A stretch of DNA of 64,000 bases from Peptococcia bacterium (GCA_965228015.1 OZ245787.1:1736698-1800697), one strand, 5' to 3'; counted from the stretch's first letter, positions 1 through 64,000 are shown. Translations and numbers: made by a program. Notes: generated from the sequence alone by a model not told the origin.

Positions 1-291
1 GTTGTTGAAATTCCAATGACAAATACAACTATTCCTCACCAGGTTCTTGGTAAATTTGGTGCAGCAAGAGTGATGTTAAAACCAGCAGCACCAGGTACAG
101 GAGTTATAGCTGGTGGGGCTGCAAGAGCTGTTGTTGAATTATGTGGCATAAAAGATATTCTTACAAAATCTTTAGGGTCAAGTAACAGTTTAAATATTGT
201 AAAAGCAACTATGCAAGGTCTTGAATCTTTAAAAAGAGCTGAAGATGTTGCGGCTCTTCGTGGCAAGACTGTTGAAGAAATTCTTAAATAG
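1..291 (+). CDS. rpsE: 30S ribosomal protein S5, C-terminal part (5' end upstream of window)
   Basis: Frame 1 is open from base 1. The translation ...[46 protein letters not shown]... is the conserved S5 C-terminal domain. It is followed by rpmD-rplO-secY as in the spc operon. Confidence 0.9.
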
Positions 292-302
292 GAGGCAAGG
301 CA

Positions 303-482
303 ATGGGAAGAATTAAGGTTACCTTAGTGAAAAGCACTATAGGAAGAGGACCAAAACAAATGGCAACAACCCAAACTCTTGGCCTAACAAAGTTAAATAA
401 AACAGTAATTAAAGAAGATAACGAAGCCATTCGTGGTATGGTTAAAACAATAGGTCATTTAGTTAAAGTAGAAGAAGTTTAG
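303..482 (+). CDS. rpmD: 50S ribosomal protein L30
   Basis: This 59-codon ORF is absent from the supplied track. It runs from ATG 303 to TAG 480-482, with GGAGG 7 nt upstream. [35 protein letters not shown]... is L30-like, and the ORF sits between rpsE and rplO. Confidence 0.85.
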
Positions 483-505
483 GTAAAGGATAGGAGGCGT
501 TCTCT

Positions 506-955
506 GTGAAGCTCCATGAAATAAAACCGGTTGAGGGTTCAAGAAAAGAAAGAACTCGTAAAGCCAGAGGTATTGGAAGTGGATTAGGAAAAACAGCAGG
601 TAAAGGCCATAAAGGTCAAAAAGCACGTTCTGGTGGTGGAAAAGGACCTTACTTTGAGGGTGGTCAGACACCATTGCAAAGAAGACTTCCAAAACGTGGT
701 TTTTCGAATGCTAGATTCAAGAAGGTTTATGTAGGTATAAACCTAGATATGATTAATGAGAAGTTTGAAGCAAATGCTGAAGTTACACCTGAAACATTAA
801 AATCAGCAGGTATTGTTAATCAAATGAAAGATGGAGTTAAAGTTCTTTCAAGAGGTGAATTATCTAAGCCCCTAGTTTTCAAAGTTCATGCTGTTAGTGA
901 AGCAGCTAAGGCTAAAATTGAACAAGCTGGCGGTAGTGTCGAGGTGATTAATTAA
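506..955 (+). CDS. rplO: 50S ribosomal protein L15
   Basis: GTG start with AGGAGG upstream. The N-terminus [44 protein letters not shown] is typical of L15. Operon position fits. Confidence 0.95.
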
Positions 956-957
956 TA

Positions 958-2214
958 ATGGTTGATGCATTAAAAAGTGTATTTAAGGTTGAAGAACTCA
1001 GACGAAAAATTATATTCACATTGATGATGGTGCTTGTATTTAGGATAGGAGTTCATATTCCTGTACCAGGAATAAAACTTGAAGTAATACAAGAATTAAT
1101 TGGTCAGGGGCAGCTTTTAGGATTTTTTGATATTATTTCCGGTGGTGCTTTTGCAAACTTTTCAATTTTTGCCATGAGTATCACGCCATATATTAATGCT
1201 TCGATCATTATTCAATTATTAACAATAGTTGTTCCTTCTTTAGAAAGATTGGCTAAAGAGGATGTAGAAGGTAGAAAGAAAATTGTAGAATATACAAGAT
1301 ATTTAACTGTAATTCTTGGTTTTGTTCAAGGTATTGGTATTTCTTTTGGCTTAAGAACTGCGCTTGAAAATACTTCCTTTCCGAGTATTTTACTAATTGC
1401 TCTTACCCTTACAGCAGGGACTGCATTTTTAATGTGGTTAGGCGAGATGATTACTGAAAAAGGTATTGGCAACGGTATTTCCTTAATCATTTTTGCAGGT
1501 ATAGTTTCAAGTTTACCGGGTGGAGTAATGTCAATGGTTGAATACTTCAGAACTGGTACAATTGGAATTATTACATTATTAGCATTTGCTGTAGTAGCAA
1601 GTGTTGTAATAGTAGCAATTATTGCTGTTAATGAAGGACAAAGAAGAATTCCAGTGCATTATGCAAAGAGAATTGTTGGTAGAAAAGTCTATGGTGGACA
1701 AAGCACACATATTCCAATTAAGGTAAACTCCGCGGGTGTTATTCCGGTTATTTTTGCAATGTCAATTATGATGTTTCCAGGAACAATTACATCATGGTTC
1801 CCAAATAATAGTTTTGCAAGAGCAGTAGGAGCATTCTTTGATTTTACATCTGTTCCTTATATGGTTTTTTATGCGATGTTAATTATGTTTTTCACTTATT
1901 TTTATTCCGCTATAACATTTAATCCAGCAGATGTTTCTGAAAACATCAAAAAAAATGGCGGGTTTATTCCTGGCATTAGACCTGGAAGACCAACAACAGA
2001 CTATATTACTAAAATTATGAACAGAATAACCTTAGCAGGTGCAATTTTCCTTGCTGCTATAGCTGTTCTTCCGAGTATTCTGATTGCTTTAACAGCTATT
2101 CCTGTTTACTTTGGCGGAACTGCTCTACTAATTGTAGTGGGCGTTGCTCTTGATACAATGAAGCAGCTTGAAGCTAGCTTGTTGATGAGACACTATGAAG
2201 GCTTTATGAAGTAA
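958..2214 (+). CDS. secY: preprotein translocase subunit SecY
   Basis: 418-aa polytopic membrane protein containing GGAFANFSIFAMSITPYINASIIIQLL. It lies between rplO and adk. Confidence 0.97.
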   Translation: MVDALKSVFKVEELRRKIIFTLMMVLVFRIGVHIPVPGIKLEVIQELIGQGQLLGFFDIISGGAFANFSIFAMSITPYINASIIIQLLTIVVPSLERLAKEDVEGRKKIVEYTRYLTVILGFVQGIGISFGLRTALENTSFPSILLIALTLTAGTAFLMWLGEMITEKGIGNGISLIIFAGIVSSLPGGVMSMVEYFRTGTIGIITLLAFAVVASVVIVAIIAVNEGQRRIPVHYAKRIVGRKVYGGQSTHIPIKVNSAGVIPVIFAMSIMMFPGTITSWFPNNSFARAVGAFFDFTSVPYMVFYAMLIMFFTYFYSAITFNPADVSENIKKNGGFIPGIRPGRPTTDYITKIMNRITLAGAIFLAAIAVLPSILIALTAIPVYFGGTALLIVVGVALDTMKQLEASLLMRHYEGFMK

Positions 2215-2241
2215 AATATATAACATCAAGGGGAAGGTAGT

Positions 2242-62279: not shown

Positions 62280-63295
62280 TGGATAATTTTATAAAAGACA
62301 TAAAAGAAAATAAATTCAGAAACATATATTATTTCTATGGTAATGAGAGATACCTTATTGATTTCTATTTAAAAAAAGCAGAGAAAGCTGCCCTCCCTGA
62401 AAAAACTGAGGGAATTAATTTTGATTTAGTAAATTATCAGGATTCAAGTATTGGGCAGATAATCAGCAATGCCAATACCAACCCTTTCTTAGGTGATAAA
62501 AAAATAATTCTGGTTAAGAATGCAGATTTATTGGGCAAAGAAAAACAATTATCTCCAAAGGAATTTAAAATTGCTGAAGAATATATAAAGAATCCCAATC
62601 CTTCTTGTATTTTATTTTTTCTTGGTGAAGAGGAAATAAAAAATATTTCTAAAAATAAACTTGCTTTAATTCTAAAATCCTCATCTTCGGAAAGACTGAT
62701 TGAGAGTAAAAAACTTAAAGGGCAGGAATTAAAGAAATGGATTGAAAGTTATCTGGTGGCTAATGAAGTTAAAATATCCCCCGGTGCAATGGAAATACTT
62801 CTTATGATTGGGGAGAAAGGCCTTTATAATCTTCATAATAAATTAGAAAAGTTAATTTTATTTACTAATGGGAAAATAATTACCGAGGAAGAAGTCAGAG
62901 ACCTTATTACTTTGACTCCCGAGGGTAAAATTTTTGAATTAACAGATGCTGTAATCAGCAAACAAGGAAAGAAAGCCTTAACATTAGTGGATGAATATTT
63001 TGCTGCAAGAGAGCAGCCAATAGTATTACGTAGTATGTTAATTAGCAGTTTTAGAAGGATGATTATAATAAAAAATGCTCTCCAGGAAGGATACATGAAG
63101 CCTGTCTACAAAGATTATCTTGATACAGGTTCGGATTTTCTTATTGACAAAACAGTTCGCCAGGTTAAGAACATATCTCTGGAGGAGCTGCTAGCTATAT
63201 ATGATGAATTATATAATCTTGAATTTACTTCAAGAAACAGCAAGCAGGATCAAGCCCTTCTTGTTAAGGATTTTATTATTAAGACAGTTTTTTAA
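62279..63295 (+). CDS. holA: DNA polymerase III delta subunit
   Basis: 338 aa. The N-terminus ...FRNIYYFYGNERYLID... fits, and the gene occupies the conserved Firmicutes position after comEC. Confidence 0.8.
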   Translation: MDNFIKDIKENKFRNIYYFYGNERYLIDFYLKKAEKAALPEKTEGINFDLVNYQDSSIGQIISNANTNPFLGDKKIILVKNADLLGKEKQLSPKEFKIAEEYIKNPNPSCILFFLGEEEIKNISKNKLALILKSSSSERLIESKKLKGQELKKWIESYLVANEVKISPGAMEILLMIGEKGLYNLHNKLEKLILFTNGKIITEEEVRDLITLTPEGKIFELTDAVISKQGKKALTLVDEYFAAREQPIVLRSMLISSFRRMIIIKNALQEGYMKPVYKDYLDTGSDFLIDKTVRQVKNISLEELLAIYDELYNLEFTSRNSKQDQALLVKDFIIKTVF

Positions 63296-63310
63296 TCGTT
63301 TTTGAAAATA

Positions 63311-63335
63311 AAAAAAGCACCTTAGGGTGCTTTTT
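63311..63335. terminator. bidirectional terminator between holA and rpsT
   Basis: A6-GCACC-TTAG-GGTGC-T5. Confidence 0.65.
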
Positions 63336-63336
63336 G

Positions 63337-63603
63337 TTATGCTTTAAAAGAGTTAAGCATTTTTGCAAATCTTGATTTTTTATTAGCAGCATTTTTCTTG
63401 TGAATAAGACCTTTAGCTGCAGCTTTATCTATCTTTTTAATTAAAGTTGGTAAGAAGTTTTTAGCATCTTCAAACTTTTCAGAAGCTAAAAAACCTTCAA
63501 AAGTTTTAATTGTAGATTTTAAACCTGATTTTTGTATTTTGTTTAAAAGATTGCTTTTTTTAGCTTTTTTTGCTCTTTTGATAGCTGATTTAATGTTTGC
63601 CAT
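63337..63603 (-). CDS. rpsT: 30S ribosomal protein S20
   Basis: ATG at 63603 lies 7 nt after AGGAGGTG. MANIKSAIKRAKKAKKSNLLNK... is the S20 N-terminus. The track start at 63615 lies in the SD region. Confidence 0.93.
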   Translation of the reverse strand: MANIKSAIKRAKKAKKSNLLNKIQKSGLKSTIKTFEGFLASEKFEDAKNFLPTLIKKIDKAAAKGLIHKKNAANKKSRFAKMLNSFKA

Positions 63604-63770
63604 TTTTGCAGACACCTCCTTTTACAGACACGAATAGAGTTATCGTCTTTTTCAATACACTTTAGTTTAACAGAGCTTAATAAACAATTCAAGATTTCAT
63701 TAAAAGAATTAATGCGAAATTCTCATTAATATTGTAGAATATAGGTTAATTATACGTATTGGAGACAGAT

Positions 63771-64000
63771 ATGCAAGAGTCTAAAAAAGAGTCAAATAAT
63801 CAAATATTAAAGGCCACAGGAATAATCATGGCAGCTATGATGCTGTCAAGATTACTTGGCTATGCCCGGGACGTAATAATATACAGTAAATTTGGGCAGA
63901 ATTATTATACAGACGCTTACAATGCAGCATTCTCAGTTCCAGATTTAATTTATTATCTTCTGGTAGGGGGAGCCCTAAGTTCTGCTTTTATTCCTGTTAT
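63771..64000 (+). CDS. murJ: lipid II flippase MurJ (MviN), N-terminal part; continues beyond the window
   Basis: ATG 63771 lies after GGAGA. ...ATGIIMAAMMLSRLLGYARDVIIYSKFGQNYYTDAYNAAFSVPDLIYYLLVGGALSSAFIPV matches the MurJ N-terminal consensus. Confidence 0.8.
   Translation, partial: MQESKKESNNQILKATGIIMAAMMLSRLLGYARDVIIYSKFGQNYYTDAYNAAFSVPDLIYYLLVGGALSSAFIPV

Follow-up and report, generated by a model that had tools for sequence, protein, structure and literature searches.

Signs of very recent gene decay that spares essential genes in a 64-kb stretch of a small Peptococcales genome

Genome degeneration has mostly been studied in insect symbionts and specialised pathogens, mainly Proteobacteria, and often long after its onset. 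Sodalis pierantonius SOPE and Sodalis praecaptivus form a pair in which host-restricted decay can be followed, the mismatch-repair-deficient populations of the Escherichia coli long-term experiment are hypermutator lineages, and Mycobacterium leprae has undergone massive pseudogenisation, its pseudogenes being old and heavily eroded. Expansion of insertion sequences (IS) together with many pseudogenes is found in the recently host-restricted bacteria Sodalis glossinidius and Serratia symbiotica (PMC7067036, PMC5013485), and IS-driven decay has been described in Shigella, Leptospira borgpetersenii, the luminous symbionts of anglerfish and Nostoc azollae (PMC7373316, PMC13046281, PMC6020299, PMC4369082). 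Here we describe a stretch of 64,000 nucleotides (hereafter the window, to which all results refer) from the ~1.9-Mb genome of a Peptococcia bacterium (GCA_965228015.1, OZ245787.1:1736698-1800697), in which accessory and metabolic genes are broken by frameshifts, nonsense codons and IS, whereas core genes are free of such lesions. Judging from the sequence, we put at about 85% the probability that these lesions are real mutations of one small-genome lineage of Peptococcales, accumulated very recently after its split from close relatives, in which case the window would represent real and very recent genome degeneration, a process in itself already well known.

The window resembles Sodalis, SOPE included, and Serratia symbiotica in its fresh pseudogenes with several lesions each, in IS proliferation, deletion bias and intact essential genes, in having a near-identical intact relative, and in the kinds of function lost, which are amino-acid synthesis, signalling and motility. 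It differs from them in that the bacterium is an uncultured anaerobic member of the Peptococcales (Bacillota), seen only in a metagenome and without a known host, that the genomes of its relatives are already small (~1.8-2.2 Mb), and that 64 kb were compared. Genes interrupted by IS, loss of accessory metabolism and decay at within-species or sister-species divergence are shared with Shigella, Leptospira borgpetersenii, the anglerfish symbionts and Nostoc azollae; unlike in that group, point lesions dominate here over the three IS-mediated disruptions, and two of the IS copies have themselves decayed. With the E. coli hypermutators the window has in common a transition-dominated spectrum, one-base indels in homopolymers, near-neutral missense changes and the decay of unused functions, yet here a mutator genotype is only a candidate, IS insertions contribute, and the setting is a natural community and not a culture. 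As in Mycobacterium leprae, a large share of the non-essential genes is inactivated and the pseudogenes are still recognisable, but the reading frames downstream of the lesions are still clean and almost unchanged (proportion of nonsynonymous differences, pN, ~0.016), which points to very young events. The window would thereby represent the first phase of degeneration in the Peptococcales, with relatives close enough to show the ancestral state at each base, so that every lesion can be dated, typed and polarised.

Lesions were called by base-by-base alignment of the window to three syntenic loci of close relatives, namely L009 (Logan SRR28465797, aligned to window positions 739-24222) and L014 and L013 (both from JGI 3300034524, contig Ga0310146_00042, aligned to positions 24142-64000). 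DNA identity to these loci is 99.1% in the ribosomal/secY block and 95.5-97.8% elsewhere. L012 and L015, of the same lineage and from a separate assembly (run SRR11566844), match L013 and L014 in gene content. More distant are L016 (INTA.AUR.031), with 86.7% DNA identity, and L003, L004 and L010, with ~79%; L003 and L004 share 97% TypA identity with the window yet only ~79% DNA identity, and were used as outgroup and not as close reference. Gene order is conserved across the close relatives, L003, L004 and L010, all genes are full length in L009, L012-L015, L003, L004, L010 and the covered part of L016 (79-99% DNA identity), and none of the five IS copies of the window is present at the corresponding site in any relative compared. 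The nearest named relative is the metagenome-assembled genome INTA.AUR.031 from a dairy wastewater stabilisation pond (1.79 Mb, 81% complete; Peptococcia, order Peptococcales; PMC8929167). Outside this small clade TypA and Obg identity drops to ~63-65%, a scan of species-representative genomes with ArgD as the single protein found no relative, look-ups of proteins identical to ArgD, ArgG, TypA and RplM of the window gave no hit, and a search of the literature on pseudogenes and IS in Peptococcia revealed no publication on the decay of this lineage. The G+C content of the window itself is 34%, its GC skew is strongly positive and nearly all of its genes are on the plus strand.

All 22 genes that a first-pass annotation of the window had listed as broken proved disrupted upon alignment to the intact relatives, and its estimates of ~30 frameshifts and ~17 in-frame stops came close to our counts. 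The 22 genes carry 31 frameshift indels relative to the relatives, 28 of them one-base deletions and three one-base insertions, together with 18-19 nonsense codons, a mixture of TAA, TAG and TGA that replaces Gln (9), Trp (4), Glu (3), Lys (1-2) and Gly (1). Every nonsense codon is a single base change away from the codon of the relative, except for CAA>TAG in the glucosaminidase gene, which requires two. The IS-mediated disruptions are the insertion in cheW, an insertion inside the gene of the radical SAM protein TIGR03960 and an insertion at the 5' end of the latter gene with removal of 130 bp. A maximum of five lesions per gene, also noted in the first-pass annotation, is reached in TIGR03960, ilvD and the glucosaminidase gene, and by our own arithmetic the ratio of indels to substitutions in the broken genes is ~0.16.

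The distribution of these lesions respects essentiality. Of 25 informational or essential genes, a core class that was fixed beforehand, none is broken, as compared to 22 of the 33 other genes (Fisher test, P=4e-8), so that the proposed clustering in non-essential genes holds and an equal lesion density across gene classes is not seen; rpsE', rpmD and rpmJ, beside the 25 pre-classified genes, are likewise intact (rpmJ as checked by direct reading of the sequence). If 53 lesions were placed uniformly over the coding sequence, the chance of all of them missing the core genes would be 1.5e-9. Disrupting indels are absent from 26.4 kb of intact coding sequence, whereas 31 are found in 26.9 kb of broken genes, and nonsense codons are absent from the intact genes where ~5-6 would be expected (our own arithmetic, from ~120 missense changes and a stop fraction of 3.4-3.6%). 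Homopolymer runs of at least 7 bases were shortened in 13 of 34 cases in broken genes, in 7 of 14 between genes and in 1 of 27 in intact genes, the sole case in the last group being amrB, which is rescued by an upstream ATG; restricted to core genes the count is 0 of 18, as against 20 of 48 in broken and intergenic sequence taken together (P=6e-4). Otherwise, indels and IS reach intact genes only within the last 3-7 codons, in rng (one indel) and in the phosphoesterase gene (one IS insertion). As shortened runs hit broken and intergenic sequence but not essential genes in a like context, we consider the lesions real. The number of ribosomal protein genes had been overstated, the window holding 13 and not ~20.

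The earlier claim that core genes are unaffected stands as far as disrupting lesions are concerned, yet these genes carry an excess of lineage-specific amino-acid changes. Differences were polarised to the branch of the window or to that of the close relative by means of the outgroup, and totals were summed by hand. Amino-acid changes are distributed 80:10 (window:relative) in intact genes and 161:33 in broken genes, whereas synonymous changes, whose polarisation against a 79% outgroup is noisy and whose absolute rates are made approximate by recombination, are roughly balanced (106:78 in intact and 109:119 in broken genes). The asymmetry is visible in the ribosomal/secY block (32:2 for amino-acid and 15:12 for synonymous changes against L009) and in argD (12:3 for amino-acid changes), and the closer outgroup L016 yields the same asymmetry for amino-acid changes. 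By our own sums the amino-acid excess per site amounts to ~0.49% in intact and ~0.78% in broken genes. At 5 positions TypA of the window has a residue that none or almost none of 119 homologues shares, and Obg carries P183S and A310V at positions that are invariant in 120 homologues. Decay extends to the core genes, there confined to missense changes and without lethal lesions, and missense changes still meet weak selection. Over ~42 kb the window branch has ~267 excess substitutions (~0.6%), of which 172 (64%) are C>T and 24% T>C; transitions make up ~88% and the bias is from GC to AT. No bias in the 5' or 3' neighbouring base and no strand bias was seen among the C>T changes, and the signature of a deaminase toxin was rejected on these grounds.

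Several observations weigh against real decay. Side contigs of the European Nucleotide Archive (ENA) assembly ERZ25074352 (L001, L002 and L008) are exact copies of the window over 2964 bp and ~3800 bp (positions 1-2964 and 50518-54326), and these contigs are small and palindromic (inverted duplicates), with a few stray one-base indels; one arm of L002 has two stray one-base deletions that break secY. They look like chimeric-read artefacts and the minor contigs of ERZ25074352 are not error-free, hence assembly error had to be weighed seriously. The contig names of the ENA sample (ctg17262_57x_l) together with the palindromic side contigs suggest that the source assembly is a long-read one. The indels of the window are nearly all one-base deletions, many of them in A7-A8 runs, and runs of at least 6 A or T account for 14 of the 31 frameshifts, which is a typical pattern of long-read error too. 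The excess substitutions, mostly transitions, have similar densities per kb in intact genes (~6.0), intergenic sequence (6.9) and broken genes (6.6), and taken alone would fit a uniform substitution error. In addition, broken genes do not exceed core genes in the total ratio of nonsynonymous to synonymous differences (pN/pS) from the close relative (0.18 as against 0.25), indicating that the genes were constrained for nearly all of the divergence, so that 3-5 lesions per gene need a very fast recent burst. The ratio is not raised because most of the differences are old polymorphism spread by recombination, and only the branch-polarised counts are informative. That the genes are really intact, with frameshifts and perhaps also stops introduced as consensus errors by a noisy long-read metagenome assembly, is nevertheless quite improbable, as an assembler cannot distinguish essential genes and yet these are avoided even in equally error-prone sequence, 26 of 27 runs of at least 7 bases being unchanged in intact genes. 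Uniform indel error is capped at ~0.11 per kb (95% upper bound, our own arithmetic), so that error could account for no more than ~3 of 31 frameshifts; neither the 18-19 nonsense substitutions nor the target-duplicated IS nor the 130-bp deletion would be explained, and the amino-acid excess per site should have been equal in intact and broken genes. Uniform assembly error was rejected accordingly, and so was an artefact of protein-guided frameshift repair, since argC, carB and ilvD are as repairable as argG and argH and would have been mended like them. Several shortened products of the broken genes are also recorded on 2-4 contigs, including a 375-aa AmtB on 3 contigs and a 116-aa N-terminal fragment of the GGDEF-EAL protein on 4, and the exact agreement of the side contigs with the window lends indirect support as well.

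A contig that is the chimeric consensus of at least two coexisting strains, in which lesions arise from the collapsing of their differences, is still less probable. Different alleles do circulate, given that synonymous divergence from the close relatives is uneven, ranging from 0.02 to 0.28 between adjacent genes; a merger of intact alleles, however, would produce substitutions, whereas one-base deletions, stops and IS that keep to non-essential genes are not expected from it. The unevenness reflects recombination at the scale of genes, the divergent blocks being argB-argD and argF-argG-argH with intact and broken members alike, and the side contigs match the window exactly. Hardly credible is the expression of the broken genes by stop-codon reassignment or programmed frameshifting, for which nothing speaks beyond the in-frame stops and frameshifts themselves. 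Such recoding is excluded because TAA, TAG and TGA, all of which occur in frame, also end intact genes; the stops replace codons of several amino acids and not of one, the frameshift sites share no common motif, and the close relatives encode the same proteins without interruption. As relatives of 95.5-99.1% identity are free of the lesions, pN/pS is not raised and the downstream frames are clean, the inactivations should be very recent.

Based on these data we propose that mutations become fixed in this lineage with hardly any purifying selection, C>T transitions, one-base deletions (frequently in A/T runs) and IS insertions being the main types. Selection would remove only those changes that destroy indispensable functions, such that essential genes would gain missense changes and never a frameshift, a stop or an IS, and about two thirds of the dispensable genes in the window would have been inactivated, many of them more than once. 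The best reading of the window is early reductive evolution, for which a bias towards deletions and from GC to AT, proliferating IS, raised amino-acid substitution and intact close relatives are textbook signs; the first-pass annotation had suggested the same, and the close relatives that are intact at all 22 genes, the IS insertions, the deletion bias and the amino-acid excess support it. What we observe are the lesions and their selectivity, the asymmetry between the branches, the spectrum of mutations and the IS insertions; the weak selection could be caused by host restriction, by a population bottleneck or by a mutator genotype, for example through loss of mismatch repair. Possible, though we doubt it as a full account, is that the decay is real but stems from a hypermutator clone blooming in the community, having lost for instance mismatch repair or uracil excision, where gene loss would be collateral, recent and possibly short-lived and would reflect neither host restriction nor long-term reductive evolution. 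The dominance of C>T and T>C in the lineage excess, the concentration of one-base deletions in homopolymer runs (the 20 of 48 long runs outside intact genes) and the amino-acid changes of core genes, which at ~60% of the pseudogene rate are near neutral, are consistent with such a clone, as are the rise of all lesions within ~1-4% DNA divergence from intact relatives and the origin of these relatives from wastewater ponds and other environmental metagenomes and not from known hosts. On the other hand, a mismatch-repair defect does not yield five IS insertions in 64 kb, the window contains no repair gene, and a mutator alone leaves the fixation of so many knock-outs unexplained unless selection on those functions was also relaxed; the idea overlaps with early reductive evolution rather than excluding it.

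A tentative and rather unlikely extension is that this anaerobe, living freely in an engineered or natural microbial community or at least not bound to a host in the classical sense, is in rapid degeneration and, at ~1-4% divergence from intact relatives, is becoming dependent on its neighbours. It would then be losing genes for arginine and branched-chain amino-acid synthesis, ammonium uptake, competence and signalling, and its dependency would be evolving within a microbial community. If so, symbiont-style decay by IS and pseudogenes can begin outside an animal or protist host, and the drivers could be a mutator state, the loss of DNA uptake and cross-feeding. Apart from the cause, the comparison offers a way to tell decay from long-read error by sequence alone, since in essential genes, unlike in dispensable sequence, the same error-prone contexts stay unchanged. 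Such a genome would receive badly wrong scores from completeness tools and gene callers built on the assumption of intact genes.

The broken genes include those for arginine synthesis from glutamate (argC, argJ, argB, argF, carA and carB), ammonium uptake and its control (amtB, glnB and the ANTAR regulator), ilvD, DNA uptake (comEA and comEC), and chemotaxis and cyclic di-GMP signalling (cheW and the HD-GYP and GGDEF-EAL proteins), as well as several transporters and radical SAM systems. Were argD, argG and argH hit as densely as the broken arg and car genes, 5.9 lesions would be expected in the three together, and none was found (probability 0.003). From the retention of these three genes we infer selection for arginine production from imported citrulline. 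Without comEA and comEC the uptake of DNA would be reduced, which would limit repair by recombination.

The five IS copies belong to three families and occupy 7449 bp or 11.6% of the window, in agreement with the 11-12% estimated before. Four have target repeats of 3-10 bp at both ends, whereas the fifth, UPF0236 copy 1, stands in place of 130 bp (L014 positions 18308-18437) that include the start of TIGR03960. The ISL3-family transposase matches Pfam DDE_Tnp_ISL3 (5.6e-74) and the zinc-ribbon and helix-turn-helix (HTH) domains of this family, and its element is missing from L009 and L010. The two UPF0236 copies are 98.45% identical, with 21 mismatches (almost all transitions) and 3 gaps, and their transposase is split at the identical place in both, copy 2 having an extra frameshift. 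The 1.35% divergence between them is about twice the per-lineage excess (~0.6%), as expected if both copies drifted neutrally since insertion. Mobile elements are decaying here like the surrounding genes. The coordinates of all features are collected in Table 1.

Table 1. Genes and insertion sequences of the window, with the lesions called against the close relatives (ORF, open reading frame; aa, amino acids).
Feature	Position	Strand	State and details
Core block: rpsE' (partial), rpmD, rplO, secY, adk, 92-aa ORF, infA, rpmJ, rpsM, rpsK, rpsD, rpoA, rplQ, ecfA1, ecfA2, ecfT, truA, rplM, rpsI	1-10654	+	intact; 99.1% identical to L009; no coding indels, 2 intergenic
ISL3-family IS	10661-12053	-	between rpsI and amrB; 438-aa transposase ORF intact; target repeat TAATAA
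amrB (AmmeMemoRadiSam protein B, LigB/Memo-like)	12125-12919	+	effectively intact; stand-alone proteins of relatives 261-262 aa
amrA (AMMECR1)	12903-13416	+	broken; one-base deletions in A7 run (13013) and A8 run (13036); L009 gene 171 aa
amrS (radical SAM partner)	13403-14259	+	broken; one-base deletion in A8 run at 13997; L009 gene 285 aa
cheW	14280-16006	+	split by IS3-family element; uninterrupted 137-aa CheW in L009
IS3-family IS in cheW	14487-15798	-	1312 bp; target repeat GAC; Pfam rve, HTH_21, HTH_Tnp_1
HD-GYP-type phosphodiesterase	16029-17070	+	broken; one-base deletions 16100 and 16892, no homopolymer; L009 gene 347 aa
argC	17164-18201	+	broken; one-base deletions 17586 (A7 run), 17717 and 18053; L009 gene 346 aa
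argJ	18215-19419	+	broken; one-base deletion 18389, no homopolymer; L009 gene 401 aa
argB	19430-20316	+	broken; CAG>TAG at 19688, one-base deletion 19902
argD	20316-21497	+	intact; no indel or stop
carA	21497-22558	+	broken; one-base deletion 21969, one-base insertion 22261
carB	22551-25736	+	broken; one-base deletion 24372, CAG>TAG 24419, one-base insertion 25472 (T6 to T7); product 1061 aa in all relatives
NUDIX hydrolase and enoyl-CoA hydratase	25761-27175	-	intact; 206 and 255 aa as in L014 and L004
argF	27295-28238	+	broken; one-base deletion 27531, CAG>TAG 28014
argG and argH	28259-30899	+	intact, lesion-free
MFS transporter	31112-32308	+	broken; TGG>TGA at 31739, CAA>TAA at 31850
185-aa membrane protein, mrp, typA	32585-35994	+	all intact
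ANTAR regulator	36156-36735	+	broken; one-base deletions in two A7 runs, 36528 and 36546
glnB (P-II)	36933-37270	+	broken; one-base deletion 37127
amtB	37300-38661	+	broken; GGA>TGA at 38425, codon 376 of 454
ClC chloride channel	38764-40334	+	broken; GAA>TAA 38902, TGG>TGA 39085, one-base deletion in A7 run 40066
Glucosaminidase (cell-wall hydrolase)	40338-42438	-	broken; stops 40532 and 41312, one-base deletions 40500 and 41542; L014 gene 700 aa
UPF0236-family IS copy 1	42451-44004	+	transposase broken; Pfam UPF0236 matches over two ORFs
TIGR03960 radical SAM	44005-47449	+	5 lesions: first 22 codons gone, GAA>TAA 44149, IS3-family insertion, one-base deletion 45880, AAA>TAA 46316
IS3-family IS inside TIGR03960	44171-45809	+	orfA HTH_Tnp_1, orfB HTH_21 and rve; target repeat CCTTGGG; not in L014
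TIGR03936 (DUF2344)	47433-48124	+	broken; one-base deletion 47690, no homopolymer
rng and metallophosphoesterase	48127-50283	+	both functionally intact; rng, one-base insertion 7 codons before stop; phosphoesterase, last 3 codons replaced by IS insertion
UPF0236-family IS copy 2	50279-51829	+	transposase broken; 10-bp target repeat CTGATTAAGA; not in L013
L21 leader, rplU, prp, rpmA, obg, DUF975 gene	51902-54917	+	all intact
comEA	54947-55575	+	C-terminus cut; A7-to-A6 contraction at 55485 removes last 25 aa, still readable in another frame
ilvD	55591-57260	+	5 lesions: one-base deletions 55682, 55766, 56316 and 57156 (A6 or A7 runs), CAG>TAG 56087
GGDEF-EAL protein	57297-58820	+	four nonsense codons 57645, 57894, 58101 and 58749; no indel
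comEC	58903-61065	+	broken; one-base deletions 59048 (A8 run), 59693 and 60406, TGG>TGA 59685
dacB, holA, rpsT (minus strand), murJ' (partial)	61104-64000		intact; no lesions vs L013

AMMECR1 and its radical SAM partner are both broken, as had been stated, but the cluster is the three-gene AmmeMemoRadiSam system, the first gene of which, amrB, is effectively intact. A contraction from A8 to A7 at 12147 (run 12136-12147, in the fifth codon) shifts its frame, and the stop has moved by one codon; the product begins with MKNDKKIGIF... in place of MIKKIGIF..., the frameshift being rescued because an ATG 8 nt upstream serves as start. The 264-aa ORF at 12125 had been considered as a piece of a fused AMMECR1 protein, which was rejected since it is stand-alone in the close relatives. 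Also rejected was the assignment of the minus-strand ORFs at 25761-27175 to an IS, these being the intact NUDIX and enoyl-CoA hydratase genes.

Within the arginine region, synonymous divergence from the close relatives rises from ~0.02-0.06 in the neighbouring genes to 0.17-0.28 in argB-argD (19430-21497) and argF-argG-argH (27295-30899), and polarisation with L016 assigns the extra synonymous changes to the branch of the window (49:8 in argG and 57:3 in argH). The two blocks seem to be divergent alleles gained by homologous recombination. Between genes, runs of T8-T9 and A7 are shorter by 1-2 bases (at 32370-33193 and in other spacers), a 14-bp insertion is found at 32484-32497, and the density of indels is higher in intergenic spacers than in pseudogenes.

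Many Firmicutes carry a methionine aminopeptidase gene between adk and infA. No such gene is present at this place in the window, L009 or L010; the interval holds a 92-aa ORF without Pfam match (window 2886-3269) that is conserved in L009 and L010. The 185-aa membrane protein (32585-33142), also without Pfam match, is 96-98% identical between lineages that share ~79% DNA identity, and the best matches after these are proteins of many Chlorobiaceae genomes with 66-74% identity, which suggests strong constraint and possibly gene transfer between phyla. The sole Rfam match at gathering score in the window is the L21 leader (51902-51976; RF00559, 38.4 bits). The second UPF0236 insertion is located ~70 bp upstream of this leader and may cut rplU off from the region that used to precede it.

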